Notes under the pieces: model-generated
The model's input: only the letters and a program-made list of their open reading frames with translations
Told to the model about the DNA's origin: nothing
Databases searched by the model: none
Translations under genes and position numbers: made by a program
Source of the DNA: a virus
DNA: 43,683 nucleotides
Strand: one strand, 5' to 3'
Virus record (IMG/VR): IMGVR_UViG_3300043478_000025
Shown: positions 1 through 43,683 of the stretch, piece by piece
How the letters are laid out: every line of letters starts with the position of its first letter
How positions within the stretch are numbered: position 1 is the first letter of the stretch

Positions 1-127
1 GGCGTGACGAGCCAGCCATCAGGCATAAAAGCTTCCTCTCTGGAACCCCCAAGCATAGCTGGATTGCGAAGTACACCAGCAGCATAGTTCTTGAGACAGA
101 GAGGAGAGTAGCCAAACGGATTCCTCC
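1..127. repeat. Exact 127-bp terminal direct repeat, copy 1 (circular-assembly overlap)
   Basis: Bases 1-127 (ggcgtgacgagccagcc...aaacggattcctcc) recur verbatim at 43557-43683. The repeat lies inside a minus-strand CDS that stays in frame across the junction. Confidence 0.95.
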
Positions 128-491
128 CTAAGTAGTCATGGAAGTAGTCGTTTACGAAGCCCCAATCGAATCCTACAGGCCACGCTACGAATAGTGGTTT
201 GCCCTCAACCATTTCATCTAGCCAGTCGGCAAACATTTGCATGGCATCTACAACCGGAAGTGGGCTATAACGATGCGCTTCCCATTGTTCCGGCCATTGC
301 TTCCACCACTCCATTGTGTTGTCATCCCACTTGTGGGCAGCAGCAGGCGGGAACTCTAGGTTAACAGTAAATACTTCAGCACGGTTGTAGTCTTCATCGA
401 GAGCTACAGCACCGATGGAACACATTTCAGACACCGAAGGTGACGGCCCTGTAGTTTCGATATCTACCGAGACTAACGAGTACTCACTCAC
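1..491 (-). CDS. DEDDh (DnaQ-like) 3'-5' exonuclease, N-terminal part; continues across the circular junction into 43556..43466
   Basis: Own translation from GTG at 491 gives VSEYSLVSVDIETTG (Exo I), PLFVAWPVGFDWGF (Exo II) and, after the junction, LLPHIAINDA (Exo III H-x4-D). 491+91 nt = 582 nt = 193 aa plus stop. Not in the ORF track because it is split by the window edge. Confidence 0.8.
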   Translation of the reverse strand, partial: MSEYSLVSVDIETTGPSPSVSEMCSIGAVALDEDYNRAEVFTVNLEFPPAAAHKWDDNTMEWWKQWPEQWEAHRYSPLPVVDAMQMFADWLDEMVEGKPLFVAWPVGFDWGFVNDYFHDYLGRNPFGYSPLCLKNYAAGVLRNPAMLGGSREEAFMPDGWLVT

Positions 492-1422
492 TTCTCATCC
501 TTTCTGGGTGCGACAACGCAAGGAACATCAGAGCGAGTATGAATAACGCTACGGCGAATAGAATAGCCAAGTCCGTAAAGAAGCCTGTCTCTGCGAGTGG
601 AGTACGTTTCGGAGTTGTCGGTGGATATTCGACGTAAGCTGTAAGTGTAGGAGTAGCCTGTGTTACGATGAACGGAGTGGTTGTTGGTGGACTGGTGGTT
701 GGTATGGTGGTTGCTGTTGTGGTTGACGGTGTTGTTGTTGTTGGAACTGTTAGTGGTGTAGTTACCGGTACCGTTGTCGTAGGTACTGTGCAGATTAGGT
801 ACTCACCGTTCTTAGCTGAGATGACTGTAGTACGATTATCGGCTGTCTGCTTACCTTGTTGAATGCGCAGAGCCTCAGTGAAATACGAACCAGACGGACC
901 AACATCTTGTAGCGGAACGCCTACAATCGCGTCAAGCTGGTAATTGCAGCCAAGACCGAATCGAGCTAGGTCTGGCATCGGGAACGTGATTTCTCCCGGC
1001 CCAGGCACTAAAAACTCCACTGAGTAACCGCCGTTTGGTCCTGTAAGCTGATCTACGTTCGGATCAAATCTTGGACCTTGTGCTACCTTGACGACGAACG
1101 AAACAGCAGATCCTACACATTCTGGTGCGACGTCTGTCCATGCCATTCTAACCAGATCGGCTTCGTTCAAATCTGGAAGAAGTGAGAGGTCGGACACAGG
1201 TCCGATGTCTACGTTCGTTACCGAATTATGGGTGCCGAACGTTGGATTAAGGACCCCAGTGTAATCACAACCGGGTGTAAGAAACGCTTGCGGCGTTCCT
1301 GGATAGTTAGCGTAGTCTGTGACTAGCGGCGGTCTTTGATTGTCGGGAACCTGGGCTCCTACACTTCCAGAGCCTATGATCCCACCGCCTAGGATCAGGC
1401 CGGCGATAAGAGCCTTCTTCAT
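484..1422 (-). CDS. Secreted, cell-wall-anchored surface protein with a Thr/Pro-rich stalk and an LAETG sortase sorting signal
   Basis: N-terminal signal peptide MKKALIAGLILGGGIIGSGSVGAQV and a ~190-aa globular part. T/P-rich linker (VPTTTVPVTTPLTVPTTTTPSTTTATTIPTTSPPTTTP). LAETG is encoded at 583-597, followed by a hydrophobic helix (FFTDLAILFAVALFILALMFLALS) and a charged tail (HPERMRSE). Confidence 0.8.
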   Translation of the reverse strand: MKKALIAGLILGGGIIGSGSVGAQVPDNQRPPLVTDYANYPGTPQAFLTPGCDYTGVLNPTFGTHNSVTNVDIGPVSDLSLLPDLNEADLVRMAWTDVAPECVGSAVSFVVKVAQGPRFDPNVDQLTGPNGGYSVEFLVPGPGEITFPMPDLARFGLGCNYQLDAIVGVPLQDVGPSGSYFTEALRIQQGKQTADNRTTVISAKNGEYLICTVPTTTVPVTTPLTVPTTTTPSTTTATTIPTTSPPTTTPFIVTQATPTLTAYVEYPPTTPKRTPLAETGFFTDLAILFAVALFILALMFLALSHPERMRSE

Positions 1423-2312
1423 TACTTGTCCGGAATGCTCTCTAGTACCGGCATCACTTCGTAAGTAGAAGTGATTGACCCACCGTCCGTCTCGAACGTG
1501 TATTTCTTAGCCTCCATTTGCTGCCTGGTCATCAACACTCCGTGAGCCTGTAGGACGCTTACTGTGTACGGTGTAGCAATGGGCCACGCCTTTGGTTCAG
1601 TAGGTGAAATAGCCCAGATAGTACCAGGGCCGTGTTTTCCACCGCCGCCTACTTGTACCACGTATCGCATCATATCGTCTTCTTCCTCATCTACTACAGG
1701 ACCAGGTCCTACACTTCCTCCGAGTTCTGCGATTGCAGACTCGACCATTAAATCCGTTCGTTCGACACTGCAATCCCAGTGGTCGTTGCCGACAGCGTCA
1801 ATATGTGCACAAATTCCATCGAATGCCGCCCACTCGGCGTCTGACATTCTGCCATGCCAGTATTCGGACGCACTTCCAGAACTGTCCGTGTGATACCTAA
1901 CGTTGGAAAGGTTAACGTCCAGCCCAATACTCCGCAAAGCTTGCACTTGTGGAGCGATAACGTTGCGACCGATCCAATCGCATTGTTGTCTGGAATAGGT
2001 CTCGACATTAACTACAGGGTTCCCAACTAGTTCGGTCTGGATACAGTACCACTTACGGTTCAGGTACGAGTTGGTGTAGGGTGGTTGATACAGAGCTTTG
2101 CCGGATCTGTTCAGATCAAGACTCTGCCACTTGTCTCCTGTGTAGACATTGGCCCACGCATGAGGCGGGTATTGGTGACTCTGGGCATAAGACATGCTTA
2201 GTCCAGAACTCACAGTCATGTGCAGGCAGATACTTGCAGGATATCCACCGACGTAATCTCCGCCGTTCGTATTGTTGTTCCCGATCCATTGATACCCCGG
2301 AATTGCCAGCAT
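1422..2312 (-). CDS. Putative endolysin (N-acetylmuramoyl-L-alanine amidase, Amidase_2/PGRP-like N-domain plus C-terminal domain)
   Basis: Candidate Zn ligands in T7-lysozyme-like order: SICLHMTV ... IQTELVG ... ICAHIDAVGNDHWDC. An acidic linker (VDEEEDDMM) precedes an ~80-aa C-terminal domain. Sits in a lysis-like cluster with small TM proteins. Confidence 0.5.
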   Translation of the reverse strand: MLAIPGYQWIGNNNTNGGDYVGGYPASICLHMTVSSGLSMSYAQSHQYPPHAWANVYTGDKWQSLDLNRSGKALYQPPYTNSYLNRKWYCIQTELVGNPVVNVETYSRQQCDWIGRNVIAPQVQALRSIGLDVNLSNVRYHTDSSGSASEYWHGRMSDAEWAAFDGICAHIDAVGNDHWDCSVERTDLMVESAIAELGGSVGPGPVVDEEEDDMMRYVVQVGGGGKHGPGTIWAISPTEPKAWPIATPYTVSVLQAHGVLMTRQQMEAKKYTFETDGGSITSTYEVMPVLESIPDK

Positions 2313-2518
2313 CAGTGATGGTCCACATCTTCGTTGTAGTAAGGTCTGGGTTCCACATCTTCCTCGAAGGGTTCGACTTCGTGAGCTTCCATTGTGGATC
2401 TATCCCACTCTACTTCTATCCACCACTCACCGACTTCGATGTTCCAGGTACGAACTACAGTACCAACCATGCCTGATTCTAGGTCACGAACTCGTTGTCC
2501 CTCTCGTGCTCTAATCAT
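2312..2518 (-). CDS. Hypothetical protein (68 aa, acidic C-terminus)
   Basis: ORF-track ORF with start/stop overlaps to both neighbours (ATGATTAG upstream, 1-nt overlap with the endolysin start). Confidence 0.6.
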   Translation of the reverse strand: MIRAREGQRVRDLESGMVGTVVRTWNIEVGEWWIEVEWDRSTMEAHEVEPFEEDVEPRPYYNEDVDHH

Positions 2519-2687
2519 TTCTCCACCAACGTTGCCAGGCGAAAGTCATACCGGGAGGGGCTACTGGACCGAATTTGGCAATGAATGACATGAACTTGTT
2601 ATTCACCCCTAGTTCATCGCCTTGGGCTGCACGATTGCCGATTGCTAGGACAGCGAACATTGCGACGAGCCCGAAGAAGTTAGTCAT
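2511..2687 (-). CDS. Small membrane protein (58 aa), holin candidate
   Basis: Own translation: MTNFFGLVAMFAVLAIGNRAAQGDELGVNNKFMSFIAKFGPVAPPGMTFAWQRWWRND. It has an N-terminal TM segment, its ATG overlaps the stop of the upstream gene and its TAG overlaps the next ATG. Below the 60-aa track cut-off. Confidence 0.5.
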   Translation of the reverse strand: MTNFFGLVAMFAVLAIGNRAAQGDELGVNNKFMSFIAKFGPVAPPGMTFAWQRWWRND

Positions 2688-3024
2688 CTTCGTCCATCAG
2701 GAGTCGAAAATTATGGAGCCTCTGCCTGGGTCGGTCTTCTCCGTGAAGATCATCCAGAAAGTGGCTTGGATTGTGGGGTCGGTAAATACCCACTCCGTAA
2801 ACCACAACAGGATGAACGCCGAGACTGTTGTTATCTGCGTCCCAGACTTCTTTGAGGTCTTGACGCCAGTCAATCTCAAAGTTTCCCTCTGCATCCGGAT
2901 ATAGTGACAGTGGGATTGGACGCCATTGGTGATTTCTCGGATTGAGGGTTGCACCGATGAAGTAGGCGATCTCACATTCATCGCACTTTCTCCACGTTGG
3001 CTCATACGTCTCGACCGTGGCCAT
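2680..3024 (-). CDS. Hypothetical protein (114 aa)
   Basis: ORF-track ORF in the co-directional tightly packed block. The alternative-frame ORF 2697..3005 is judged a shadow. Confidence 0.6.
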   Translation of the reverse strand: MATVETYEPTWRKCDECEIAYFIGATLNPRNHQWRPIPLSLYPDAEGNFEIDWRQDLKEVWDADNNSLGVHPVVVYGVGIYRPHNPSHFLDDLHGEDRPRQRLHNFRLLMDEDD

Positions 3025-3316
3025 TTGTCTCCTGGATAGGGATTTGGAGTGCTTCTGTATTATCCTCCCCAGGCGGGGGGATTGCCGGAATCCTCATGAA
3101 CTCCGGTACCTGGAGAGGCATTGCATTTTCAGTGGGTAGTACCTTATCTTGTTCTGTGTAGGGAATGCCTAGTGTTCTGAACGTCTCTAGGACACTCAGA
3201 TAAAGGTAACGGTGCATGAAGAACCGCTCATCATCCGAGAGTCTCCACGAGTGCATTCCAAGCCGAGCCATCATCTCGGCTACTTGGGCGTTTACGAAAC
3301 GGCTCCGGAGTTCCAC
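3002..3316 (-). CDS. Hypothetical protein (104 aa, GTG start)
   Basis: ORF-track ORF packed between the resolvase and the next gene. Confidence 0.6.
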   Translation of the reverse strand: MELRSRFVNAQVAEMMARLGMHSWRLSDDERFFMHRYLYLSVLETFRTLGIPYTEQDKVLPTENAMPLQVPEFMRIPAIPPPGEDNTEALQIPIQETNGHGRDV

Positions 3317-3324
3317 ATCCTACC

Positions 3325-3762
3325 TCACCATATGATTTTCGTTTCTGGATCTACGCCTTGATGAATTGCATAAACTGCGTGAACATAGGCGTCGGTCCAA
3401 TGAGTAGGAGTGCCCTTGTACTTAGCCATTTTATACCCAGCAGGTTTGATCATCGGTTGTTGCACCGTGAAATGCCAGCCCAGGTCATAGGCTTTTCCGT
3501 AGCAGACCCCAATTTGCTTAGTAACAGGTGTAGGAGTCCATTCGGCTGACTTACGAAGGATGAAGTCTTCACAGACCACGATTACGTTCTCAGGGGAGAA
3601 TCCTGTTAGATCGTAGGCTTTGGAGTCCCAACCTTTGACCCATGCCATGAAGTCCGGCCAGGGAACGTTGCCGAAGTCGTGTAGGATCATTTGCCTGTCT
3701 CGCCAGCTAACCCAGGCATAGCCTGTAGTCTTACCTGGGTCGATCCCGAGGTAGAGTGTCAT
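3325..3762 (-). CDS. ruvC: RuvC-like Holliday-junction resolvase
   Basis: N-terminal LGIDPGKTTGYA (catalytic Asp motif), VVCEDFILR (Glu), and C-terminal HWTDAYVHAVYA (His/Asp). Size of 145 aa is typical. Confidence 0.75.
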   Translation of the reverse strand: MTLYLGIDPGKTTGYAWVSWRDRQMILHDFGNVPWPDFMAWVKGWDSKAYDLTGFSPENVIVVCEDFILRKSAEWTPTPVTKQIGVCYGKAYDLGWHFTVQQPMIKPAGYKMAKYKGTPTHWTDAYVHAVYAIHQGVDPETKIIW

Positions 3763-4094
3763 CCAGATTCCTTGTTCTCAAGTAGTCGTTGTAGTTCTTG
3801 TTGCACTATCACAGGGAATTCTTCCCTTACTCGTTTTCGTTGGTCAGCGGTCAAGCCGCCGAATACTCCTACAGGGACATCTATGTTCTGCGATAAACAT
3901 CGCCATCGGACAGGACAGACTTCCCGACACACCGTTGTGGCGATGAAGATGTCCGCAGGTTTGTTACTGAACCAGATGTCAGTCGGTCTGCTTACACACG
4001 CACCCATTCTCTCCCAGGTAGGACGATTAAAGATGTTGGCGAACGCACTTAGATCGACTGATCTGTTTTCAGGCTGGATGCCAGGATCCGTCAT
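3759..4094 (-). CDS. whiB: WhiB-like Fe-S transcription factor
   Basis: Four Cys arranged C-x22-C-x3-C-x5-C (GACVS ... TVCREVCPVRWRC), followed by a GVFGGLT turn and a basic tail (DQRKRVRE). Confidence 0.8.
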   Translation of the reverse strand: MTDPGIQPENRSVDLSAFANIFNRPTWERMGACVSRPTDIWFSNKPADIFIATTVCREVCPVRWRCLSQNIDVPVGVFGGLTADQRKRVREEFPVIVQQELQRLLENKESG

Positions 4095-4416
4095 CAGATG
4101 CCACGATCAAGTTGCAGGTCGCTGTAGCACCGATGAAACTCCACGGAGTAGCCGCAGTTGGGTTTGCACCCTTCTTGACCGCAGGCTTTGCAACCCAGGT
4201 CGGAATACGAGGAAGCAACGGAATGGTATCATCACCTTGGACTGTTGCTGCTATTGCTGTGTTTAAGTAGGCGATGTTCGTTGCATCCGTGTTCATTATC
4301 CAGAAACCCTGACACCTTTCCAACCCCGGGTTTCCTAGCATGTCGATCGGATCGAAGTTACCTGCCGTTGTAGCTGCTGCTACGAGCTTACTAAGTCCTC
4401 TTGCTGTTGCTGCCAC
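4069..4416 (-). CDS. Hypothetical protein (115 aa)
   Basis: ORF-track ORF. Its start abuts the polymerase stop and it overlaps the WhiB-like start by 26 nt. Confidence 0.55.
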   Translation of the reverse strand: MAATARGLSKLVAAATTAGNFDPIDMLGNPGLERCQGFWIMNTDATNIAYLNTAIAATVQGDDTIPLLPRIPTWVAKPAVKKGANPTAATPWSFIGATATCNLIVASDDGSWHPA

Positions 4417-6182
4417 TAGCCCTCCTTGTTCAACTGTTTTGCCTCTACTGAGAACGGTATCCCGAAACGCTTGGTGGGCGGGGCTTCCATAATGTCGATG
4501 ATCTGTGCTGTAGTTTCCTCTAGCACATGCGGTGCGATGTAGAACCAGAGGCTATCATGTACTGAATTGCAGATCCGAGCTTGTATCTCACCACGCTTTA
4601 TCGCTTCACTCAGCATGATGGTGCTCTGCATGAGTATTTGCCCGCAACCGCCTTGAACTACACGGTTGAAAGCAATATGGTGCTTAGCTTGTACACCAGG
4701 AACTTCTGGTTGGATTCGTGCCCGGCGACGGTTCCACATTTCCACGTGTCCGTACCGCTTGTGGTAGTTGGCGTACGCTAAGTTAGCTCGACGAAATCCT
4801 GGGTACTGTCCGTGAAAAGCCTCCTTCCAAGACTCCGCTTGATCGAGTGTGCAACTGAATCCGAACATTCGATATAGCTGTGCCTTAAAAGTGTCAGCTC
4901 CAACTCCGTAAATCCACGCGAAGTTCCCAGTCTTACCAACTTGTCGAGCAGTATATCTATCATCGAGTTGATCGTAGGCTCCGATGACGGTTGCTGTTGC
5001 TGCATGTGGATCTAGTCCTTCTGCGAAGAGTTCGTACATGATAGGATCATGGCCTAGCCTCATAGCATAGAATGATCCGAGTCGTAGTTCTACAGCATTG
5101 TAATCAAACTCTACAAGCACTGATCCCGGAGGGTCCACGAAGAGACGTTTGACTCTCGCTCCGTCTCTAGGAATCTGTTGCAGGTTCGGCTCAGCGCAAG
5201 ACAGTCTGCCCGTAACCGTGCCGTGTTGTTTAAGACCTGGATGGATTCGATCGGTAGCAGTTCGACGTCGCTTGAATCCTTCGTACCATGTTGAGTCCGC
5301 TTTTGCCAGATTGCGCCAGCGTAGAATGTTGCGGAACAGATCCCCATGCTGAGGGAACTGATCAATAAGACGATTGAGCGCTTCCTTGTCTTGTCCACGT
5401 TGTCCTTTCTGAGTGTAGGATAGACACGGCAGTTTCATCTCTGTATAGAGTAGTTCGTCTAGTTGCTTGCGCTTGCTCGGCTCGAAGCCTACGATCTTCT
5501 CAATTTGTCGCATTTCTTCTTGACCTACAGCCTGCATAACGTCGAGAAGGTCCCAGTCTACTAACAAACCTTCTTGAACGATGTGCTGTAGTGCCCGAAT
5601 GTACCGAGCCGATGTCTTGTAAAGCTTGGCCAACCCTTGTTCTTCGAGCTTGCCTCTGTCTCTAAGGAAGAGTTTATACGTCAGCCGAATGTCCTGCTGA
5701 GCGTACTCACTCATGAACTGGAACGGAATCTCATTCCAGCCGTATATCTTCTCGATCTTGCCGATGTCGACGATGCTTTCGCCCCATCGAATTCCCTTGG
5801 TTTCCTTCAAATACCGGAGACTCAGGAAGTCCAGGCTGTAGTTGTACTCATTCTCGTTGAGAATGTGGTGCATAACAAGAACATCCCAGATGAACCCGTC
5901 ATGAACGTATCCGTTCTGCTCTAGAATCTCTAGATCGAACATCAACGAGAAGCCGATCATCTCCTTGCCCCGCAATAGCGGAATGACGTCGACGAATTCT
6001 TGTGGCGTGAAGTAGAACGTGTCTAAATCTAGGCCAGTCGGGATACCTACAGCTACACCCATGAGTTCTTTGCCGTCGAACGTATCTGTCTTGTACGTTT
6101 CAACGTCGAGAACAAAGATGCCGGTGCGCCGCAGTTGCTCTTTGAACTTGCTCGCTGGGTCTAACTCATAGGTCAATGTCAT
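4416..6182 (-). CDS. Family-A DNA polymerase with N-terminal 3'-5' exonuclease domain
   Basis: Exo motifs: VLDVETYKT, GFSLMFDLEIL, YAQQDIRLTYKL. Pol motif A is DYNAVELRL, motif B is RQVGKTGNFAWIYG, motif C is SVHDSLWF. Confidence 0.9.
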   Translation of the reverse strand: MTLTYELDPASKFKEQLRRTGIFVLDVETYKTDTFDGKELMGVAVGIPTGLDLDTFYFTPQEFVDVIPLLRGKEMIGFSLMFDLEILEQNGYVHDGFIWDVLVMHHILNENEYNYSLDFLSLRYLKETKGIRWGESIVDIGKIEKIYGWNEIPFQFMSEYAQQDIRLTYKLFLRDRGKLEEQGLAKLYKTSARYIRALQHIVQEGLLVDWDLLDVMQAVGQEEMRQIEKIVGFEPSKRKQLDELLYTEMKLPCLSYTQKGQRGQDKEALNRLIDQFPQHGDLFRNILRWRNLAKADSTWYEGFKRRRTATDRIHPGLKQHGTVTGRLSCAEPNLQQIPRDGARVKRLFVDPPGSVLVEFDYNAVELRLGSFYAMRLGHDPIMYELFAEGLDPHAATATVIGAYDQLDDRYTARQVGKTGNFAWIYGVGADTFKAQLYRMFGFSCTLDQAESWKEAFHGQYPGFRRANLAYANYHKRYGHVEMWNRRRARIQPEVPGVQAKHHIAFNRVVQGGCGQILMQSTIMLSEAIKRGEIQARICNSVHDSLWFYIAPHVLEETTAQIIDIMEAPPTKRFGIPFSVEAKQLNKEG

Positions 6183-7923
6183 CGCTGCCCTTTAGATCTT
6201 CCTCGTTTAGTTCGCCGGTCATTTGTAGTGCAGGCTTCGCAGCCTCTGGTTCTCTAGCAGAAGTCTTTTCAAACCAATGGTCTGTGTTCCTGTTCAGGAA
6301 CAGCGTGCTGGTTCCACTGAGGAACCTAGTCTTCACACCATCGAATTCTACACCGCTTTTGGAACGCTGCATGATAAACACGGTATTGGCACGATCACCG
6401 AAGACACGGCTGCCGTAAGCGTCGTCTATGGTGAACCTGTAGTTCTTGACTCCGGCAGGTACCTTCCTCGGGTGTGCAATTACGATGCACCATATTCCGA
6501 GTTGTTGTCGGAGTCTGTCAATCCAGTCGGCAATCTTTCTTGCACCAGTCTCATCCTGTAGGCTTGTCTTAGTCGAAGCCCCAAGAGTGTCCAAGATAAA
6601 GCCGGAGAAGCCACCGTCTCGAAGTCGTTTCTCGTATGCCTTCTGGTTTCGTTCATCGTCAAGAGCTACAGCCTGTCCGGTTGCACGAGTCTGGAAGTAT
6701 TCTTCTAGGTGCTCAAGCTCATCAGTCGTCATGTTGTTCGACATTGGTAAGAGGAACTCTGTAAGCTCAGCGCTGTTCATTTCATGGCTGGCTACGTAGA
6801 TTTTCTCTGCTCGCTCTCGCTGTTCAATCTCGAACCCTAACCACGACTTCTTGCTTAATGCGATCGTGATTCCGAGGTTGAACGCCAGGGTTGTCTTGCC
6901 GATCCCTGTAGGTCCAACGAGATACATCAAACCTTTGTTGCCGAGAACTCCTGGGATGATCCATTCGATTCGTGGACTCTTTGTGATCAGAGTCTTGAAA
7001 CCTACAGCCTCATTCCAATTGATGTCGTCGTCAGCAACTGGCGGTGGTTCGTCGGTAACGATTCTGATGGGCGGGGTCGTCTTCTCTTGAGCCCGGTGTA
7101 GGATAGTATCTAGTTGTTCGTTCCTGTCGGAACGGTTGTCGAATTTGCCCCATTTCTTGGCAGCTTCATCGACGATGTGTCGTGCTTCTTCTAGTGCGAA
7201 CTCTTCTTCGAGTAACCTACACGCTAGCTCGAACAGCTTGTCGGAACGGGTTCCTTCGGATGGCTTGGAGTTGTAGAGCTTCTTCGTGTACTCCGTTAAC
7301 TCTTCCCACCGTTGGATCGAAACCTCTTCCATGCCGAGTTTCGGCGTGAGAAGGTTCATCTGAGGAAGCCTGAACTCTGTCAGATCGAAGACTGTACCGT
7401 GGTTCTCTAGGAGAGAGACTGGTTTCGGTGGAGTGTGTTTGTGGTTGAAAGTACCGGGGATCCGGAGTAATTGTGTAGGATCATGTCCGGACTTATCTGC
7501 ACCAGGAACTGCGTTTCCAAAGAAACGGTTCGTCTCTAAAAGTGCCTCACGCCCAAGCCACGCCTCAGATCGTCGGTACTGGTGGACCCTACCGACGGAG
7601 CCCGAGGCGACCAGGAGGCCGGCAGGCGGGCAGCTAGGGCCGTCTCGTGGCACGTCCGTTGGCAGGTCGTCCACATCGGCCCAGCTAACCCAGCTACCTA
7701 GACAAAATTCCATCCGGCGTCTTTGGACGTGAAAGAGCGCAGGAGTGAAATAGACATCACCCTGCGCTCCTAGTTGTTGAACTTTGTTTTCCGAGACCCG
7801 AGAGATTCCATCGGGTACTTTGATGAACCATTCCTTTGCTGGCTTTCCACCTTTGAAGAGTGAAAGCGCAAAGTAACCCTCTTGGTCGCCACCGAAGACG
7901 TAGTCGAAGAACTCATTGAGCAT
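6166..7923 (-). CDS. Bifunctional primase-polymerase (AEP) fused to a RecA/DnaB-type helicase/ATPase
   Basis: N-terminal AEP motifs: WADVDD (DxD), GSVGRVHQY (sGxGxH), LLRIPGTFNHKH. C-terminal Walker A VGPTGIGKTTLA, Walker B FILDTLG, and IVIAHPRK. Confidence 0.8.
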   Translation of the reverse strand: MLNEFFDYVFGGDQEGYFALSLFKGGKPAKEWFIKVPDGISRVSENKVQQLGAQGDVYFTPALFHVQRRRMEFCLGSWVSWADVDDLPTDVPRDGPSCPPAGLLVASGSVGRVHQYRRSEAWLGREALLETNRFFGNAVPGADKSGHDPTQLLRIPGTFNHKHTPPKPVSLLENHGTVFDLTEFRLPQMNLLTPKLGMEEVSIQRWEELTEYTKKLYNSKPSEGTRSDKLFELACRLLEEEFALEEARHIVDEAAKKWGKFDNRSDRNEQLDTILHRAQEKTTPPIRIVTDEPPPVADDDINWNEAVGFKTLITKSPRIEWIIPGVLGNKGLMYLVGPTGIGKTTLAFNLGITIALSKKSWLGFEIEQRERAEKIYVASHEMNSAELTEFLLPMSNNMTTDELEHLEEYFQTRATGQAVALDDERNQKAYEKRLRDGGFSGFILDTLGASTKTSLQDETGARKIADWIDRLRQQLGIWCIVIAHPRKVPAGVKNYRFTIDDAYGSRVFGDRANTVFIMQRSKSGVEFDGVKTRFLSGTSTLFLNRNTDHWFEKTSAREPEAAKPALQMTGELNEEDLKGSDDIDL

Positions 7924-7947
7924 CCCTCCCTCGATTCTTTCTTTTCC

Positions 7948-8054
7948 CAGCCACGGGAACTCTGTCTCTCTACCCGAAAAGCCGTACCCTCAGGATTAGA
8001 GAGTACGGCTAGTCAGGATTCCCGTGGCTGTGGAATTACCCCGGAAGGGCGGGG
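7948..8054 (-). terminator. Nested hairpins/terminators between the SSB-like and primase genes
   Basis: CCCCG/CGGGG hairpin at 8039-8054, just after the 8058 stop. Perfect 12-bp arms cagccacgggaa (7948-7959) / ttcccgtggctg (8019-8030) enclose an 8-bp stem agccgtac (7980-7987) / gtacggct (8003-8010), which is followed by a short U run on the minus strand. Confidence 0.6.
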
Positions 8055-8057
8055 TTC

Positions 8058-8684
8058 TCAGTAGGGCTCTTCGTCCATTTCGTAATCCGAAACGGAACGC
8101 CAACCCATGATCTTGGTTCGGGGCTTTGACTCGCCGTCACGCTTGTCAACTTCCTCGACCGTTTGGAGTCGAACCGACACCGGCATGTCATCGAAGTAAC
8201 TCATCGCCACGTTGCGTCGCCCACGAACGTCTCGAACTTCTGGTCGGAACTCCTTGAAGTTCACATTCCGACCTTCCCAGTCTTCTCCAGTCGTCGCCGA
8301 AAGGAAACTACACAGTTCCCTGAGTCCGTTCGGAGTCCAGTTCGGCTTGAAACCGAGCCAGATGTACTTTCCGAAGAACGTCCCGTTGTAACTTGCCAGC
8401 GGACCGGAAGGCTGGTCGATCTGCACACTGATGTTCCAACCACGGCTGACTTTGCCGGTATTCGGACCATCGGTGTTTGTCTTCTCTTGGTGTAGGACAC
8501 CCTTCACCTGTGCGTTGTACCAACCATCGGGAGGGTACACCATCGACAAGTCGGCGTCTTCACCGAACATCTTGTCGAAGTCGAATTCAGGTGTGTCGTC
8601 TTCTGTCGAAGCGAAGACGAAACCGGAATCCAACGGCGCCTCTTCGTCATCGTCCGTGAACGGAGTGGTAGTCTGGTCCGTCAT
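8058..8684 (-). CDS. Putative ssDNA-binding protein (acidic aromatic C-terminal tail)
   Basis: Located between the recombination ATPase and the primase. The C-terminus DYEMDEEPY resembles SSB/gp2.5-type acidic tails ending in an aromatic residue. No OB-fold motif could be verified by eye. Confidence 0.35.
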   Translation of the reverse strand: MTDQTTTPFTDDDEEAPLDSGFVFASTEDDTPEFDFDKMFGEDADLSMVYPPDGWYNAQVKGVLHQEKTNTDGPNTGKVSRGWNISVQIDQPSGPLASYNGTFFGKYIWLGFKPNWTPNGLRELCSFLSATTGEDWEGRNVNFKEFRPEVRDVRGRRNVAMSYFDDMPVSVRLQTVEEVDKRDGESKPRTKIMGWRSVSDYEMDEEPY

Positions 8685-9424
8685 GCGTGTTCCTTTGTTT
8701 GTTGTAGTTGGCTAATGAAACCGTCTAGCGTTTGCCAGTCTGGGTCTCGTATGATCGGGTTCTTCCCGATCGGGAATCGTGACTTCGTTAGCAAGTCGGT
8801 ACCGGATTGAACCCGAAGGGTTCGTGTAGCTCCGGTTAGTTCCAGGAAGAAACAGCAATCCATCATCGCCATCACTTCTCTGGTTAGGGCGGGGCTAAGA
8901 CCTGGTCGAATTAGTTTCTTCTGTAGTCCCTGAACTGTGATTGTATCCTCCGTCATGTGGCACGTGAGGATGAGGTTCTTACCTGTGCTCAGAAGAGCTT
9001 CGATGAATTTGACGATTCGGAAGTTGTTGGCAGAATAGATAGCTTCGTGGAACGGGTTCTTCTCTTCTACAAGAACGTCTACACCACGGATCTGTCGCTC
9101 ACGTTCGATGCTTTGTAGAGAAGAGATGGTATCGACGACGATGGTGTCGATTTCCGCTAGGAACTTCTTATCTCGACATAGATCACGTAGGAAACGAACT
9201 GCTTTTTCCCAGTCTTGCGTCGAGTACCACTTGACCGCCGAGCGGAGTTCACTCGGGAGATTCCGTAAGACAACTTGTCCGCCGTCATCGAACTCGATAA
9301 TGAGGGGTCGTGGAGCCTTAGCAGCGAGAGTAGTTTTTCCCGAACCTGGCCATCCGTAGAGGAAGAGTTTCCATCGTTCGAGATAGGCTTCATCTCCAGT
9401 CCTTATTGCGTCAGCTACAGGCAT
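8681..9424 (-). CDS. RecA-like AAA ATPase (Sak4-type recombination/annealing protein)
   Basis: Walker A LYGWPGSGKTTLA, Walker B IVVDTISSL. At 247 aa and adjacent to a nuclease, it fits the usual phage recombination module. Confidence 0.7.
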   Translation of the reverse strand: MPVADAIRTGDEAYLERWKLFLYGWPGSGKTTLAAKAPRPLIIEFDDGGQVVLRNLPSELRSAVKWYSTQDWEKAVRFLRDLCRDKKFLAEIDTIVVDTISSLQSIERERQIRGVDVLVEEKNPFHEAIYSANNFRIVKFIEALLSTGKNLILTCHMTEDTITVQGLQKKLIRPGLSPALTREVMAMMDCCFFLELTGATRTLRVQSGTDLLTKSRFPIGKNPIIRDPDWQTLDGFISQLQQTKEHA

Positions 9425-10392
9425 TATGGTAGCTCCGGGTAGACTTCCGAGTCGAGGTCGAACTGATCAATGTCAAAGTCTTGTACCTCCATTGTCGTAG
9501 TCTGGAACTTAGTGCTAGCAAGTTCATCTATGGAACTGCCCTGTAGGTAGGTCATGCAGATTTCACTGAAACCGCAGCCACTACAGAACTTGTCGAGTCG
9601 ACGACCGAACTTGAAGTTCTCGTACCGCCACATCTGGTCGATGAGACCGAACAGTTCTTCTTGGTAAGCGTCGAGAGTTGTCTTAGTAACTTTGAGTTGA
9701 TGCCTCTGGAAACGCTCTTCACGCTGTAGTGCCTCGTGAACGTTGTTCTTCGGCAACCACATGTCGACCGTGTTGATCATCATCCATTCGACTTCCACGC
9801 CTTGAAGTGAAAAGAGGAGCGGATAGAAATTCGTCTGGATGTCAAAGACGATCGAATCTGTAGTCCACGGGCGCCTTGTGTGCGTCTTGTGATCGACGAT
9901 TCCCAAAGCAGCCCTCCGCTCTGCGAGTAGATCAACAATGCCGTGGAGATAGATCGGTCGGCGTCCTGTAGCTTTTGAACTGCGAAGCGTGGTATCGGCG
10001 AACGTTTCAATTTCGGCTCCTACAGGGATTAGTTTCTCACCACGCTCGGCCCATTTCATGTAAGTGATCATGATAGTGTAGGCGTTGAAGAACAGCAACT
10101 GACTCTCGTAGTCAGTCCATCCGTTCTCGGCTTGTGTAGTTTCCATCAGTTCGACCAGTTCTTGACTCGTTAGAATCTGAACCGGCCGACCGATGAACTT
10201 CTTATAGTAGTTCTCGGCCAGCTTGTGCCACATCTCACCGAGAGACATCTTCTGTGTCTGAACACGGAACTCAGACAGATTCTCTCGGCGTACGAGACTC
10301 CACTTATAGTTACACCTCTGGAAGAGAGCTACCTGTGTAGGACTGATAGTGATAGCGTTCTCGGGAATGTCTTCTCTGGTTAGTAGTTTCAT
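9424..10392 (-). CDS. PD-(D/E)XK nuclease of the Cas4/RecB family with Fe-S cysteines
   Basis: N-terminal Cys (FQRCNYKW) plus a C-terminal C-x2-C-x5-C (FCSGCGFSEIC). Core HGIVDLL...GIVDHKTH matches D...(D/E)xK. Confidence 0.75.
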   Translation of the reverse strand: MKLLTREDIPENAITISPTQVALFQRCNYKWSLVRRENLSEFRVQTQKMSLGEMWHKLAENYYKKFIGRPVQILTSQELVELMETTQAENGWTDYESQLLFFNAYTIMITYMKWAERGEKLIPVGAEIETFADTTLRSSKATGRRPIYLHGIVDLLAERRAALGIVDHKTHTRRPWTTDSIVFDIQTNFYPLLFSLQGVEVEWMMINTVDMWLPKNNVHEALQREERFQRHQLKVTKTTLDAYQEELFGLIDQMWRYENFKFGRRLDKFCSGCGFSEICMTYLQGSSIDELASTKFQTTTMEVQDFDIDQFDLDSEVYPELP

Positions 10393-10402
10393 AGCTCCCT
10401 TG

Positions 10403-10501
10403 TTAGGCTCGGCGGAGTAGGTAGATGATCAGTAGAATGAGTGCAACGATCGCAAGGATGACTAGTACGGTGATGAGGGTTGGATCTACAGCTAGAATCA
10501 T
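10403..10501 (-). CDS. Possible 32-aa hydrophobic peptide
   Basis: Own translation: MILAVDPTLITVLVILAIVALILLIIYLLRRA. ATGA overlap with the upstream stop, and it ends 10 nt before the GGAG RBS of the nuclease gene. Confidence 0.4.
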   Translation of the reverse strand: MILAVDPTLITVLVILAIVALILLIIYLLRRA

Positions 10502-11220
10502 AATGTCCCCGGTGCCCATTTTGTTCCGGTCCAGGTGAACCACCATTTACCAAGGAAGAAGTTATCCCACGACGCCCATGCTCCGGAGCCGTCGGGAAAG
10601 TAACCCAGTCCTTGTAGTTTATCAGCGTTTGCTTGATCGCCGTTCGTAACGGTTGGCTCTGGTGGAAAGTTCTGACTGATCTTCACACTAGCCTTGTTTA
10701 ACGGACCCTGAACCCAGGAGAGATAGTTAGCCGTTTGATCGGCAGGACCTATCCACGTAGCCATATCAGGGTTGTCCGGTAGGCCGATATCTACCCAGTT
10801 TCCTAATGGCCAGGGATTTGTTTGTCCGGCGGCGCCTAGTCCATAGTTCAAATCTTGCATTGTCTGCGGATTATCACAACCCGGAGGCGTAAAGTATCCT
10901 GGGGCTCCCGCAACTACACCTGTTGCTGGGTTAGGAGGAACCGGAGGAACCCAACCCGGAACTAGCGGGCCGTCGTCTAGTGGGTAGAGTTTGTAGTAAC
11001 GCATTGTGTCGCAGAGAATCAATAGATCCCGTGCAACTTTTCTGGATTGTTCTTCGGTCCTACAGTCCCTTCCCATGAACCAGTTTCCCTGGGTTCTCAT
11101 GGCAAGAGCTAGCTGATCTACGTCTACGTCGCTGAATGGAGGGTTTGGGGAGATGTAAGGCTGTATTTGTCCGCCTCCTGGCATCGACGTGACAATCGAC
11201 GCCATGAAAGGTTCGGTCAC
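10498..11220 (-). CDS. Hypothetical protein (240 aa) with an N-domain paralogous to 11483..11920 and a Trp/Pro/Gly-rich C-domain
   Basis: DVDQLALAMRTQGNWFMGRDCRTEEQSRKVARDLLILCDTM aligns with DVDLLALALQRVGPFFLGNDVRSVESARAVALELLQAFLDM of the 145-aa protein. Confidence 0.65.
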   Translation of the reverse strand: MTEPFMASIVTSMPGGGQIQPYISPNPPFSDVDVDQLALAMRTQGNWFMGRDCRTEEQSRKVARDLLILCDTMRYYKLYPLDDGPLVPGWVPPVPPNPATGVVAGAPGYFTPPGCDNPQTMQDLNYGLGAAGQTNPWPLGNWVDIGLPDNPDMATWIGPADQTANYLSWVQGPLNKASVKISQNFPPEPTVTNGDQANADKLQGLGYFPDGSGAWASWDNFFLGKWWFTWTGTKWAPGTL

Positions 11221-11486
11221 AGCTTACGAAACTGCGTGTAGGGAGCCTTTAGAATAACAGGCTCCGGGTCTTCTCCCCTCTCTATCCCTGGACTTTCCGC
11301 ACCTCTACTTTCTCCGCCTTCTGGCGGGGGAGGTTCTGGAAGTTCAGCCTTAGAACGGGCGAGAGAAGTTTCGGCGTTCTCATCGCCCATCTGTAGTTGT
11401 TCCATTCGAGCGTGATGCTCACGCTCGCCGAGTTCCTTCTGCTTGATCTGTTCCCTGTCTTCTGAATCTGCTGGACGTTCGCTCAC
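11217..11486 (-). CDS. Hypothetical charged protein (89 aa)
   Basis: ORF-track ORF with 4-nt overlaps to both neighbours. Confidence 0.55.
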   Translation of the reverse strand: MSERPADSEDREQIKQKELGEREHHARMEQLQMGDENAETSLARSKAELPEPPPPEGGESRGAESPGIERGEDPEPVILKAPYTQFRKL

Positions 11487-12280: not shown

Positions 12281-12310
12281 ACCCGTCCTCGTTCGGGAAG
12301 GGTGGTGTAG

Positions 12311-12396
12311 TGGCCCGAGCTAGAATCGAACTAGCTGCACAAGAAGAACTCCGGGAGAGACAGAGACCATTGTTTTCTTGGCGCTCCTGCCGAGCC
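12311..12396 (-). ncRNA. tRNA-like element 2 (86 nt: acceptor stem plus canonical T-arm, non-canonical core)
   Basis: Sense: GGCTCGG ... GCTAG-TTCGATT-CTAGC-TCGGGCC-A. 7-bp acceptor stem (two G.U) and a T-arm identical to element 1 except for one compensatory pair (G-C to A-U). In the interior I could fold only a 9-bp CAAGAAAAC/GTTCTTCTTG stem, not a cloverleaf. Confidence 0.4.
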
Positions 12397-31097: not shown

Positions 31098-31755
31098 TCT
31101 ACAAACGTTCGTGTCGGCTCTTGCGGGAGACGAATCTAACGTTCAGTTCACGACGGCACAGATCACGCAGTACCTCAACTGGGCGCAGAAGGAAATGTGT
31201 AGGCGGCTGGAATACTTCCAGAAAACCGCTACAATCACAACACTAGATACAGGCGTTGTAGATAATCAAGGCGGAGCAGTTCTTCCGGCGGACTTCGATC
31301 AGGAACTACACGTCTTCTGGAACGGAAGTAAGATCAGTAAGACCTCCTATGCTGACTTCTATGGACAGCTTGGCGGGGGTGTAGGTACCAGTAATCCCAC
31401 GTATTATGCCATTCAGGACTTTAACTCCACACCAGCACGACGAATGGTGTTCTGGCCTTATCAGTCTCCCGGAAGAACGGGAATTGATCTAGACCTGATC
31501 TATACCGCACAACCTCCCGATCTTGTTGCCGGTGTGGATATTCCGGTGCTTCCTGATGCTTGCCATGAGGCTATGTGTTTGTATGCTCTGGCGAAGTGTA
31601 AACTACAGGAAAACGACTATCAAGCTTATAAGCTCGTTCAGGGTGACTACCTAGCCAAGATAATGGAACTGTCTAGTTTTGTGACAGAAGCGGACGGTTT
31701 CTCGTACCCGATCGTTCGTTCTTCGTACGAGCAGATCGAGTCAATGGATGCGTAG
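31084..31755 (+). CDS. Structural protein, possible head-tail adaptor
   Basis: Call rests on position after the capsid and on size (223 aa). No diagnostic motif was verified. Confidence 0.4.
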   Translation: MNLTSLQTFVSALAGDESNVQFTTAQITQYLNWAQKEMCRRLEYFQKTATITTLDTGVVDNQGGAVLPADFDQELHVFWNGSKISKTSYADFYGQLGGGVGTSNPTYYAIQDFNSTPARRMVFWPYQSPGRTGIDLDLIYTAQPPDLVAGVDIPVLPDACHEAMCLYALAKCKLQENDYQAYKLVQGDYLAKIMELSSFVTEADGFSYPIVRSSYEQIESMDA

Positions 31756-36893: not shown

Positions 36894-37920
36894 CCAATAC
36901 GGTCTACAGACATCAGACGACCAGAATAAACTGGGGACTTCCGGTACTGGAATCATCGACTCCGGAAACCAACAAGCCTCGGGGCCTGTAGGACAGCAGA
37001 GTCCTTTCAGTGCAGTAACTCCTGGACAAATTTCTGCTGCCGGTGCTGCTCCCGTACTTCCTACAGTTCAGCAGTACGCCTTCAATCCTAAGTACGCTGC
37101 TCAGAGCCAGGCTCTTGAGCAGATGTTAGCGGATAAGCAGCTAGAGCAAAACAACCAGTTGTTCGCTGCCCAACAGGACTTCGATCGACAGAAAACTGAT
37201 GCCGGAACTACACGTCAGAAAGCTTTAGATGCTCTGATCGCTAAGTTTGCAACATCCGGTATGATCGGATCTACCGCTGACGCCGAGACTCGCGGTGATC
37301 TTGAGACTAACTATAACAAGTATCTAAGCGATCTAGCACTTGGGCTAGGAAACACTCAACAAGGTATTAGAGGCAACTACGCTAATACCGTTCGAGATGT
37401 GAACTTCCAGCGTGCTGATATGTGGAGCAAGCAAGGCGAGGAAGATCTAGCTGAACGACGTCGTCAAGACGAAATTCGTCTTCAAGGCGAACGAGATAGA
37501 GCAGCCGCTGATAACGCTCGAATGATCGCAGATTCAAACAGAGCAGCCGCAGAAGCAGCCGCTAACAATCGTCCCGTAATTAACATTCCGTCTCCTTATG
37601 CTCCTGGTGGTGGGGGCGGAGGTGGTGGAGGCGGTGGTGGCGGTGGAGGTGGAGCAGGCGGAGGTGGTTTTGGATGGAACATTCCGTGGGCTGGGATTGC
37701 ACCGTCTGATTCCTACCAAGACATCGTGAACCAGATCGCTTTGCTTGGTCAATCCGGTGCTAGTCATCAGCTAAGTCTGTTGTATTCTGCTCCGGAAATG
37801 CAGGGACAGAACGTTGCTGATCTTAAGAAGAACCTTGGTAGTGCAATCTACAAGGCTTCGACACCCGGCGCACCAGGATATATGCCCACGGATTACTCTA
37901 ATCCTGGAGGTTTCTGGTAA
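36883..37920 (+). CDS. Putative internal virion/ejection protein with a coiled-coil region and a poly-Gly tract (345 aa)
   Basis: Position before two further large proteins resembles a podovirus internal-core set. A Gly run is encoded at 37606-37668. Confidence 0.45.
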   Translation: MPINQYGLQTSDDQNKLGTSGTGIIDSGNQQASGPVGQQSPFSAVTPGQISAAGAAPVLPTVQQYAFNPKYAAQSQALEQMLADKQLEQNNQLFAAQQDFDRQKTDAGTTRQKALDALIAKFATSGMIGSTADAETRGDLETNYNKYLSDLALGLGNTQQGIRGNYANTVRDVNFQRADMWSKQGEEDLAERRRQDEIRLQGERDRAAADNARMIADSNRAAAEAAANNRPVINIPSPYAPGGGGGGGGGGGGGGGGAGGGGFGWNIPWAGIAPSDSYQDIVNQIALLGQSGASHQLSLLYSAPEMQGQNVADLKKNLGSAIYKASTPGAPGYMPTDYSNPGGFW

Positions 37921-42801: not shown

Positions 42802-42950
42802 CGGACTTCTTCCGAAGGTGAAGATGTCGTCGTTAGTTTCTCCGATGTTGACGAACCCGGATTCTTCGAGTTGTTCCGGTTCTTCCGGCAGCGATGGTGT
42901 AGGAAGCTCACCAGGATTTCTAGGTTCAGGAAGAACAGGGAACGTCGGAG

Positions 42951-43103
42951 TTACGTTTTCTTCGCTCGACTGTTCGCTATCCGTATCGCCTTCCCTTCAT
43001 CGCCTTCGCGTTTCAGAATGGCATTACTGATCGCCGCCCATTTGGCGGGTTCGATGTCTGGATTCTTTGTGTGCCTTTTGGCGTCCTTCGCTTTCCAAGG
43101 CAT
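42951..43103 (-). CDS. Small basic protein (50 aa)
   Basis: Own translation: MPWKAKDAKRHTKNPDIEPAKWAAISNAILKREGDEGKAIRIANSRAKKT. TAAATG junction with the upstream stop. Confidence 0.45.
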   Translation of the reverse strand: MPWKAKDAKRHTKNPDIEPAKWAAISNAILKREGDEGKAIRIANSRAKKT

Positions 43104-43466
43104 TTATCGAACAGGAGGTCCACCAGGAGGCATTGCACCTGACATCGGAGGCATCATTCCCATTCTACCCTGCATTGCTGGGTTTTGTCCCGGAGGCGGA
43201 CCCATAGGAACAGCACCAGGAGGAAGACCCATAGGAGGACCACCGGGAGGCATTCCACCAGGACCCCCAGGACCACCTGGGGGAGCAGAACCTTCCATTT
43301 GAGCAAGCATCATCATGATTGCTTGCAACATCGCTGGATCCATCTTTCCTCCTGAACTCTTCTTGCTACTGCCACGACGGTCATTCTTGTTGTCTGGTGT
43401 CTTGCCTTCTACGTCTACCTTGTTGTCCTTCTTCTGTTCCATCTTGAATCCGTGCTCTGTAGCCAT
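43104..43466 (-). CDS. Low-complexity Pro/Gly/Met-rich protein (120 aa)
   Basis: A basic N-terminal third and a Met-rich helix (MDPAMLQAIMMMLAQMEG), followed by PPGGPGGPGGMPPGGPPMGLPPGAVPMGPPPGQNPAMQGRMGMMPPMSGAMPPGGPP. The opposite-strand ORF 42871..43302 is a shadow. Confidence 0.65.
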   Translation of the reverse strand: MATEHGFKMEQKKDNKVDVEGKTPDNKNDRRGSSKKSSGGKMDPAMLQAIMMMLAQMEGSAPPGGPGGPGGMPPGGPPMGLPPGAVPMGPPPGQNPAMQGRMGMMPPMSGAMPPGGPPVR

Positions 43467-43683
43467 CAGCCAGTGTACCTCATTATGTTGCGGATCATCA
43501 TTGCCTGAGCAATCGCGTCATTGATTGCGATATGCGGGAGAAGACCGATACTCTCGGGCGTGACGAGCCAGCCATCAGGCATAAAAGCTTCCTCTCTGGA
43601 ACCCCCAAGCATAGCTGGATTGCGAAGTACACCAGCAGCATAGTTCTTGAGACAGAGAGGAGAGTAGCCAAACGGATTCCTCC
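43466..43683 (-). CDS. DEDDh exonuclease, C-terminal part (43557-43683 duplicates 1-127)
   Basis: Stop TGA at 43468-43466, overlapping the next ATG by 1 nt. Encodes ...PESIGLLPHIAINDAIAQAMMIRNIMRYTG, which includes the Exo III H-x4-D. Confidence 0.8.
   Translation of the reverse strand, partial: RNPFGYSPLCLKNYAAGVLRNPAMLGGSREEAFMPDGWLVTPESIGLLPHIAINDAIAQAMMIRNIMRYTG
43557..43683. repeat. Exact 127-bp terminal direct repeat, copy 2
   Basis: Identical to 1-127. Unique genome length is therefore 43556 bp. Confidence 0.95.

Follow-up and report, generated by a model that had tools for sequence, protein, structure and literature searches.

Sequence-specific prim-pols of the archaeo-eukaryotic primase (AEP) type bind their recognition site through a helix-bundle domain; pRN1 ORF904 requires GTG and ATP, and the NrS-1 prim-pol prefers 5′-GTGG/GTGA-3′ and starts at the first upstream base (PMC8718748). 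RepB′ of RSF1010 uses dATP to initiate at the T of a GTG triplet lying immediately 3′ to a hairpin, and its start sites are two inverted repeats inside oriV (PMC8567376). Here we analyse a viral sequence of 43,683 nt, IMG/VR record IMGVR_UViG_3300043478_000025 (the window, by which we mean this whole stretch), in which TGTAG, or CTACA on the other strand, is the most over-represented pentamer. The excess is written into genes by codon choice, and related phages carry words of their own that share the first three letters. We propose, as a reading with an even chance of being right, that TGTAG is the template recognition and start word of the phage's own AEP primase, by analogy with the enzymes above.

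Primase recognition words, ssi sites and origin iterons are already known. RepB′ with its sites ssiA and ssiB is the best structural match to the modelled catalytic and helix-bundle domains of the window's primase, and the window too has T-G-T words, hairpin-plus-word elements and inverted word pairs in non-coding DNA. RSF1010 has only two 40-nt sites, leading-strand-only replication and no helicase fusion, whereas the window has a word of 5-9 nt in ~250 copies on both strands and a primase fused to a superfamily 4 (SF4) helicase. With pRN1 ORF904 (GTG) and NrS-1 (GTGG/GTGA, TTTGGTTA) the window would share a short GTN-type word, reading by a helix bundle and a start at an adjacent base (PMC8718748). 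The best NrS-1 site, GTGG, is contained in the TGTGG of the window's relatives, but in the literature retrieved neither genome-wide enrichment nor lineage switching was found reported for these two enzymes. T7 gp4 is likewise a primase fused to an SF4 helicase, and its sites, 5′-(G/T)(G/T)GTC-3′, are also pentamers in which a trinucleotide is fixed and two letters vary, and their 3′ flank affects their strength (PMC12839067). Unlike the enzyme discussed here, gp4 is a DnaG/TOPRIM primase with a zinc finger and not an AEP, and its sites are not enriched outliers in the T7 genome.

Two other kinds of phage repeat invite comparison. The lambda origin contains iterons bound by the O protein, and, as in such origin iteron or operator arrays, the window has close palindromic repeats in non-coding DNA whose sequence varies among related phages; in contrast to lambda-type iterons, the half-site of the window is identical with its genome-wide word, and no initiator protein was found there. 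Cluster A mycobacteriophage stoperators, which are repressor-bound, and cluster K start-associated sequences are intergenic, 13 bp long and present in ~10-35 copies. They too are short asymmetric intergenic motifs of actinophages, oriented with transcription, but they do not occur in hundreds of both-orientation copies within coding sequence. In the literature searched we did not find a primase-type word that is kept genome-wide by synonymous codons, differs between lineages and is rewritten at orthologous positions, and we know of no earlier case of a primase word that shapes a whole genome through synonymous codons and evolves between sisters.

An exact count gives 249 strand-pooled copies (136 TGTAG and 113 CTACA), 2.98 times the 83.5 expected from base composition and rank 1 of the 512 strand-pooled pentamers; the original prediction, made from the letters of this sequence, had estimated ~245 against ~85. 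A maximal-order Markov model expects 151 copies (z 7.9, with the runner-up pentamer at z 3.5), and the same scan of 6- to 8-mers gave no genome-wide outlier in the window. Synonymous-codon shuffles performed within each gene, which leave protein and codon usage unchanged, yielded 117±8.6 copies with a maximum of 145 in 200 shuffles (observed z 15.4). When all pentamers were scored in this way CTACA reached z 16.7 and the runner-up 8.0, and a codon permutation null gave 105±8 copies (z 17.8). Codon-preserving shuffles thus fall short of the observed count, which argues strongly that the excess stems from DNA-level selection independent of protein sequence and codon usage, as had been predicted. 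In the pentamer scoring many one-mismatch neighbours of the word are under-represented, with no single source word. A single directional conversion (VSP-repair-like) was ruled out, as the depletion is distributed over these many neighbours.

The codons through which the word is spelled are readily seen. Valine is encoded by GTA in 66% of cases when flanked by T and G and in 19% otherwise, leucine by CTA in 52% ahead of CA and 18% otherwise, and threonine by ACA in 39% after CT and 21% otherwise; altogether 212 of 703 synonymous opportunities to spell the word are taken (~30%). The predicted roles of Val GTA and Leu CTA are borne out by these percentages, and the four example coordinates quoted for them are all exact. 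Density is 5.3/kb in coding and 11.1/kb in non-coding DNA. On the sense strand CTACA falls in frames 0/1/2 in 48/39/42 copies and TGTAG in 15/1/79, the latter being rare in frame 1 because a TAG stop would arise there. Both orientations are found in every frame free of a stop codon and in both of the oppositely transcribed arms of the genome, the exact count agreeing here with the earlier statement for the two transcription blocks. The word shows no orientation polarity, the slight asymmetry of 136 to 113 being due to the stop-codon frame. An RNA-level signal was ruled out, since the sense strand is enriched for both orientations.

The original prediction had also listed four motif deserts and tied them to the most codon-biased genes. 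Their copy counts (0, 0, 0 and 1) are correct; the tie to codon bias is weakly supported, there being few synonymous opportunities in these stretches. Relative to opportunities the word is depleted in 12436-13347 (0 of 12), in 21338-22144 (0 of 12) and in the capsid gene (1 of 20; nominal P 0.007-0.014), and the SNF2 stretch, with 4 of 19 used, is not depleted. With ~65 genes tested this is modest evidence of gene-level depletion.

TGTAG is also the core of a longer element and the half-site of palindromes, neither of which the original prediction had described. Around it there is a weak extended consensus, [C/G]TGTAG[T/G]T(C): C or G precedes the word in 78% of copies, TTCC is over-frequent after the word, and the flanks match in all four bases in 14 copies (1.1 expected) and in three bases in 33 (12.3 expected). 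The 9-mer TGTAGTTCC, preceded by [C/G], occurs 14 times against ~0.3 expected (Table 1). The first four of its left-arm copies in Table 1 (those from 16206 to 20123) are found 25-50 nt ahead of start codons, and several left-arm copies are preceded by a CTACA-containing arm able to form a hairpin, for example CTACAGGAA-CAAC-TTCCTGTAG, which ends at 20115. The copy at 22443-22451 lies in the arm-switch region. Of two further patterns suggested for checking by the original prediction, an extended consensus is therefore present, if weak and supplemented by the 9-mer, and periodic spacing is absent in the window.

The palindromes lie in a non-coding region between the early and middle genes. In the direction of transcription this region begins with a terminator hairpin, GGGGAGGGAAACCTCCCC (21025-21008), followed by GAACG/CGTTC palindromes, two copies of the 20-mer CATACAGYTACNNGGCCGCTT and then the TGTAG array, downstream of which is a sigma-70-type promoter, TTGACA (20469-20464)-N17-TAAGAT (20446-20441). 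The array has four perfect TGTAG-N6-CTACA pairs where 0.35 are expected, and this N6 spacing is restricted to the array within the window. In relatives the homologous non-coding region keeps the layout with other array half-sites: CGTTC-N6-GAACG in at least four copies in the contig L006 (9280-9520), and GTAAC-N4-GTTAC in at least five in the contig L005 (3260-3460). A repeated element of the form CAGCTAnnnGGCCG (20940-21000 in the window) and the terminator GGGGAGGGAAACCTCCCC are common to all three. The array repeats resemble iterons that belong to an origin or a regulatory region and differ between lineages. A search of the array-neighbour genes for a DNA-binding domain (HTH or other) found none; most of these genes lack any family match.

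Three known signals resembling parts of these elements were considered and rejected: an NtcA/CRP-type site (TGTA-N8-TACA), because the host is marked as actinobacterial by WhiB, no HIP1 element is present and the likeness is confined to the array; a DnaA box (CCACA core), because the flanks fail to match; and an ECF sigma -35 element (GGAAC, on the reverse strand of TGTAGTTCC), because it is antisense to genes and has no -10 partner.

Relatives were compared with the same unbiased outlier test as the window. CTACA is the top or a near-top pentamer in twelve of them (observed/expected 1.5-3.2), which reach down to 39% polymerase identity and range from 44 to 54% GC. The clade of L005, L012, L021 and L022 has CCACA/TGTGG as its top word at ~2x, with CTACA at 0.9-1.3x. 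Among cultured phages, Jasmine and Adat of Arthrobacter sp. ATCC 21022 have CTGTGG (101 and 90 copies, 4.9x in Adat), Cellulosimicrobium phage DS1 has TGTCG (z 7.9), and Microbacterium phage Shocker has TGTCG (z 6.6) together with CTGTAAAG(G) in 45 copies against ~0.1 expected. A search with the primase domain alone retrieved three more, from outside the family but with the AEP primase-helicase and replication module in common: the Pseudomonas siphovirus PMBT14, in which TGTGG is the sole outlier (z 7.6), Serratia phage Opt-155 with GTGTG and TGTGG (z ~4), and Amigo, again of Arthrobacter sp. ATCC 21022, with GTGTGC (z 5.7) and no enrichment of CTGTGG. The controls without the module (T7, the contigs L014-L016 and Constance, an unrelated Arthrobacter phage without any outlier word) have no such word. 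The family words are T-GTAG, T-GTGG, T-GTCG, T-GTGC and CTGTAAAGG, in which T-G-T is constant and the last two letters are lineage-specific. Jasmine and Amigo carry different words on the same strain, so the host does not impose the word. The host-wide oligonucleotide bias named at the outset as a possible refutation is contradicted indirectly by this difference, by the change of word between sister phages and by related words in phages of Actinobacteria and Pseudomonas with a common replication module. Judged from these genomes, the word follows the replication module rather than the host genus; the comparison with related phages that had been suggested at the outset shows the enrichment to be family-wide and the word lineage-specific.

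Several of these genomes show features of their own. In Shocker the 9-mer CTGTAAAGG (~45 copies, ~0.1 expected) lies in coding DNA in both orientations, supplies a TAA stop and an AAGGAG ribosome-binding site at gene ends, and occurs in three copies per terminal repeat; Shocker may have two word classes, this one alongside its TGTCG excess. Gordonia phage Gibbous has a very strong tetramer outlier, TTGC/GCAA (233 copies against 127, z 9.4), as well as GCATT, possibly the counterpart of the word in this phage under another grammar. In Brevundimonas phage Polewnik TGTAC is scarce (2 copies, 0.03x), which suggests avoidance of GTAC restriction. Among maximal-order-Markov pentamers CCTGA/TCAGG ranks first in Amigo (z 6.25) and in T7 (z 5.3) and is elevated in Jasmine and Adat as well (z ~3.9), although these phages are not all related. 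L009 (from the 291-kb contig ENA ERZ25039555 contig_5919) carries at 1-11300 a fragmented related phage of 53% GC with frameshifted genes, and at 12100-21296 bacterial DNA of 67% GC with CsbD, entericidin, MarC and MarR-type genes, genes for small stress proteins of proteobacterial type among them, and no word excess; it is probably a long-read assembly chimera, not a prophage, and was not used as host evidence. A scan of genome contigs for host DNA with the Lsr2-like protein of Jasmine gave no match.

The change between TGTAG and TGTGG can be followed site by site. In codon-aligned orthologues 26 of 55 window sites (47%) are identical in L006, which is TGTAG-type, against 27% for pentamers generally (P=0.001). 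TGTGG stands at 7 of 36 orthologous window sites in L005 and at none of 55 in L006 (Fisher P=0.001), and it is the commonest L005 counterpart of window TGTAG sites. The intergenic elements changed as well: the merged L005 contig has TGTGGTTCC eight times and TGTAGTTCC not once, its homologue of the 9-mer at 22443-22451 reads TGTGGTTCC, and the arm-switch element is CTCGCTTGTGTAGTTCC in the window and CTCGCTTGTGTGGTTCC in L005. Coding copies are thus maintained, and were switched along with the intergenic elements, which argues for a trans-acting reader whose specificity changed. Such a pattern is the signature one would expect of dispersed copies read by a factor of switchable specificity.

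Identities to the window show which genes moved with the word. The primase-helicase is 66% identical in L006 and 56% in the TGTGG clade, the family A polymerase (PolA) 82% and 64-66%, and the 115-aa protein encoded at 4069-4416 89% and 41-44%, the sharpest contrast of any gene; neighbouring genes are about equal (SNF2 77 and 79%, AAA_24 88 and 80%). These values point to extra divergence of the replication module coinciding with the word switch.

If the word marks repeated priming start points, each strand should tend to be covered evenly. In Jasmine the coefficient of variation (CV) of the gaps per strand is 0.62 (P=1e-4) and 0.70 (P=0.009); among 36 similarly abundant hexamers these two values rank lowest. 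Adat gives 0.69 and 0.71, PMBT14 0.67 on the + strand (P=1e-4) and Amigo 0.69 and 0.75; sites are spaced more evenly than chance in these four genomes, from three independent lineages. The mean per-strand spacing of the longer words, 0.8-2.8 kb, falls in or near the range of T7 Okazaki fragments, 1-6 kb (PMC12839067).

The candidate reader is the primase-helicase. Its N-terminal part has the RepB′-like AEP motifs WVDxD, SGSPGRxHxYW and LLRVPGTxNxK, invariant in a 15-sequence alignment, and the N-terminal 300 residues include a helical segment; a helix-bundle domain (residues ~200-285) precedes a C-terminal Twinkle/T7-gp4-type SF4 helicase, the C-terminal half of the protein matching the Twinkle helicase. 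In the AlphaFold model the overall pLDDT is 64 and that of the helix bundle near 90. [quoted passage not shown] HMMER against PDB sequences detected no similarity to pRN1 ORF904 or the NrS-1 prim-pol. The model predicts that the enzyme is a RepB′/pRN1-type AEP with a helix bundle, fused to an SF4 helicase. The family words fit the known site grammar of such enzymes, a short GTN-type word with T as the start base.

We infer from this that the primase is the reader, that a T of the word is the start base and that the array serves as an origin. On single-stranded template a GTN(R) word would be read by the helix-bundle and catalytic domains, and (d)ATP, as the first nucleotide, would be placed opposite a T within or beside that word. 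Carried along by the helicase, the primase would have to begin primers again and again, on either strand whenever it serves as lagging-strand template. Genes of the window for a Cas4-type exonuclease, an AAA_24 ATPase and a RuvC resolvase suggest that replication depends on recombination, so that forks probably run in both directions; with priming needed on either strand, selection would have put the word into both, mainly by synonymous codons. Non-coding DNA would hold the stronger sites, namely hairpin-plus-TGTAGTTCC elements between genes and the inverted-pair array, a candidate origin that would supply starts on both strands as ssiA and ssiB do in RSF1010 oriV. Priming by the AEP primase explains jointly the enrichment, the switching, the host independence, the link to the module, the grammar, the spacing in relatives and the inverted array. 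Among the functions first suggested for the motif, priming sites are thus favoured and low-affinity protein sites are a live rival, and nicking and modification found no support. More tentatively, and with rather less than an even chance, the word may be a private 'replication address code', in which the primase starts efficiently only on the word of its lineage and the genome displays that word densely on both strands. A change of specificity would then rewrite hundreds of sites, in many cases without a shift in codon position. Sister phages would be mutually incompatible for exchange of the replication module, and the replisome would prefer phage DNA over host DNA. Such a code would amount to a novel form of co-evolution, spanning the genome, of a replication enzyme with its template, and sequence alone would reveal it in the many phages with this module.

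A number of observations weigh against the primase as reader. Only one switch is observed among close relatives, and any co-diverging gene would fit it; the gene that tracks it best is that of the 115-aa protein, not the primase. The only primase positions separating TGTAG-type from TGTGG-type enzymes are F261Y and D501E, a pattern not found in Jasmine, which is independently TGTGG-type. Gibbous, in which only the catalytic core of the primase is homologous, has no TGT word, and in Polewnik CTGTG and TGTGG are weak (z ~4, ranks 6-7). The T7 primase pentamers reach Markov z of only 0.2-2.3 in the T7 genome, so that the primase studied most offers no precedent for enrichment. The structure model is of moderate quality at its overall pLDDT. 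In the window one word per 320-390 nt on each strand would seem more than Okazaki priming needs, and regular spacing is absent (CV 1.03-1.14, also when the arrays are removed and for hexamer subsets); about half of the pentamer copies are to be expected from chance, which could hide regularity. The array half-site equals the genome-wide word in the window, unlike in L006 (CGTTC) and L005 (GTAAC). The promoter-proximal position of TGTAGTTCC and its orientation with transcription would be fitted equally well by a transcription factor.

That last point leads to the rival that survives best, which is possible and yet unlikely: another phage-encoded, sequence-specific protein that binds double-stranded DNA (dsDNA), from the conserved early or replication arm, reads the word. 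It might regulate transcription, as an activator or a repressor, it might coat the genome or act in counter-silencing, or it might be the 115-aa neighbour of PolA; the palindromes would then be dimer operators, TGTAGTTCC an activator box close to promoters and the dispersed copies low-affinity marking or coating sites. Six 16-bp palindromes of fixed spacing upstream of a sigma-70-type promoter would suit such a protein, as would left-arm 9-mers placed before start codons and co-oriented with transcription, a small protein as the strongest co-varying gene, and window sites that are clustered or random rather than even. No DNA-binding domain was detected in the candidates, however, and regulators account neither for ~130 extra genic copies in both orientations nor for sites spaced evenly on each strand, as seen in Jasmine, Adat, PMBT14 and Amigo. 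It is the replication module, not the early-region proteins, that is conserved across the wider set of TGT-word phages, and the arrays of L006 and L005 have other half-sites although the genome-wide words there are still TGTAG and TGTGG.

Site-specific nicks in T5-like phages and motif-specific base modifications that protect phage DNA provide precedents for a word targeted by a phage-encoded nicking or DNA-modifying enzyme, which we consider improbable. Short asymmetric two-strand words are typical of such enzymes, many open reading frames (ORFs) of the window are unannotated, and some relatives have HNH endonucleases. The HNH genes are not common to the family, though, and no methyltransferase, base-modification gene or nickase was detected among the 40 window proteins scanned against Pfam and PHROGs, many ORFs being unannotated. 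The strong avoidance of CGCG described below suggests restriction-exposed DNA rather than broad protection, and we know of no nicking or modification targets that are enriched by selection.

A mutational footprint, left by context-dependent error or repair bias of the phage family A polymerase or an associated factor, is very improbable. It would agree with the divergence of PolA and its neighbour along with the word switch, and with a trait that tracks the replication module across hosts. Against it, the depletion extends over many one-mismatch neighbours and not one source word, orthologous sites are conserved above background, even spacing implies selected placement, and the 9-mer extension, the perfect palindromes and the Shocker 9-mer with its 45 copies are too specific for such a bias. 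Chi sites are 5-8 nt long, vary with the host and can be enriched in phages, and CTGTGG is loosely like E. coli Chi GCTGGTGG; a Chi-like recombination signal or general host oligonucleotide usage is nevertheless dismissed as the least probable source, since two phages of one Arthrobacter strain differ in word (CTGTGG in Jasmine, GTGTGC in Amigo), Constance lacks any, sister phages of equal GC content differ, TGTGG recurs in the Pseudomonas phage PMBT14 and the word has no orientation polarity.

Table 1. Genes, long elements and non-coding features of the window discussed in the text
Feature	Coordinates	Strand	Remark
WhiB-family protein	3759-4094	-	PF02467, 39.5 bits (cutoff 23.6)
115-aa protein directly downstream of PolA	4069-4416	-	No domain detected; conserved beside PolA family-wide
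Family A DNA polymerase (PolA) with 3′-5′ exonuclease	4416-6182	-	
Primase-helicase, 585 aa	6166-7923	-	Proposed reader of the word
Second intergenic cluster	16193-16249		Two TGTAG-N12-CTACA pairs: 16193-16214, 16228-16249
TGTAGTTCC, left arm	16206-16214, 17537-17545, 19585-19593, 20115-20123, 20159-20167, 20517-20525	-	Transcribed strand
TGTAGTTCC, right arm	22443-22451, 23197-23205, 26315-26323, 28539-28547	+	
TGTAGTTCC, other copy	16668-16676	+	
TGTAGTTCC, other copies	28932-28940, 31302-31310, 37204-37212	-	
Non-coding region between early and middle genes	20357-21032		~0.7 kb; orientation -
Palindrome array, TGTAG(A)-N4/6-(T)CTACA	20608-20812		Candidate origin, strong two-strand priming sites, or operator array
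Perfect palindromes	20608-20623, 20626-20641, 20649-20664, 20777-20792		
Imperfect palindromes	20692-20707, 20715-20730		One mismatch and two mismatches, respectively
Half-site	20808-20812		
Conserved early gene, 268 aa	21338-22144	-	No word copies; no family match

The window has no megablast match among known phages. Its terminase shares no more than 40% identity with the enzymes of an uncultured podovirus (MW202795.1) and of phages infecting Arthrobacter, Microbacterium and Cellulosimicrobium. Encoded on the - strand, in the left arm, are an SNF2-type helicase, a Cas4-type PD-(D/E)XK nuclease, an AAA_24 ATPase, the primase-helicase, the family A polymerase, a RuvC-like resolvase and a WhiB protein, which by its sequence marks the host as an actinobacterium. 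In the right arm lie the genes for a portal of P22 type and for adaptor and capsid proteins of SU10 type. The two-arm layout recurs in Jasmine, Adat, Shocker and DS1. Homologues of the conserved early gene, at 27-41% identity, occupy the same position in four relatives; the ORF at 21402-22214 (-), which overlaps it nearly fully in a different frame, encodes an Arg-rich product without homologues and by these signs is spurious. The ORF at 20925-21284 is also spurious, the small gene at 21033-21251 being the real one. Pfam and PHROGs gave almost no annotation for the early and uncharacterised proteins, a scan for RNA families and tRNAs in the window found none, and a single-protein scan of viral and metagenome collections with the SNF2 helicase gave no match.

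Two side observations concern defence. The 80-aa protein encoded at 25503-25745 (+) is 90% identical to an L006 gene product with a match to Pfam Acb2_Tad1_hairpin, a family of anti-CBASS/anti-Thoeris sponges, and the contig L013 carries a similar gene; judged by this similarity it is likely an anti-defence gene within the packaging module. CGCG occurs in only 25 copies against ~184 expected (observed/expected 0.14), and CGCGC, CCGCG and ACGCG are the rarest pentamers of the window. The depletion is common to close relatives (0.00-0.21) except L001 (0.73) and is lacking in the bacterial part of L009 (1.31); its probable cause is that the phages avoid a CGCG-type restriction system.

If TGTAG is indeed read by the AEP primase, primase specificity could be read straight from phage genomes, giving a sequence-only handle on lagging-strand initiation in phages with AEP primase-helicases, which would extend to cultured phages of Arthrobacter, Microbacterium, Cellulosimicrobium, Pseudomonas and Serratia. 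It would also predict incompatibility between module and genome, which is relevant to recombination barriers, phage engineering and recoding. Several cultured phages have their own versions of the word, and the signal is thereby experimentally accessible and highly testable. Should the reader prove to be another protein, a selected, dominant and lineage-specific T-G-T-N-N word in a broad group of phages would still stand.

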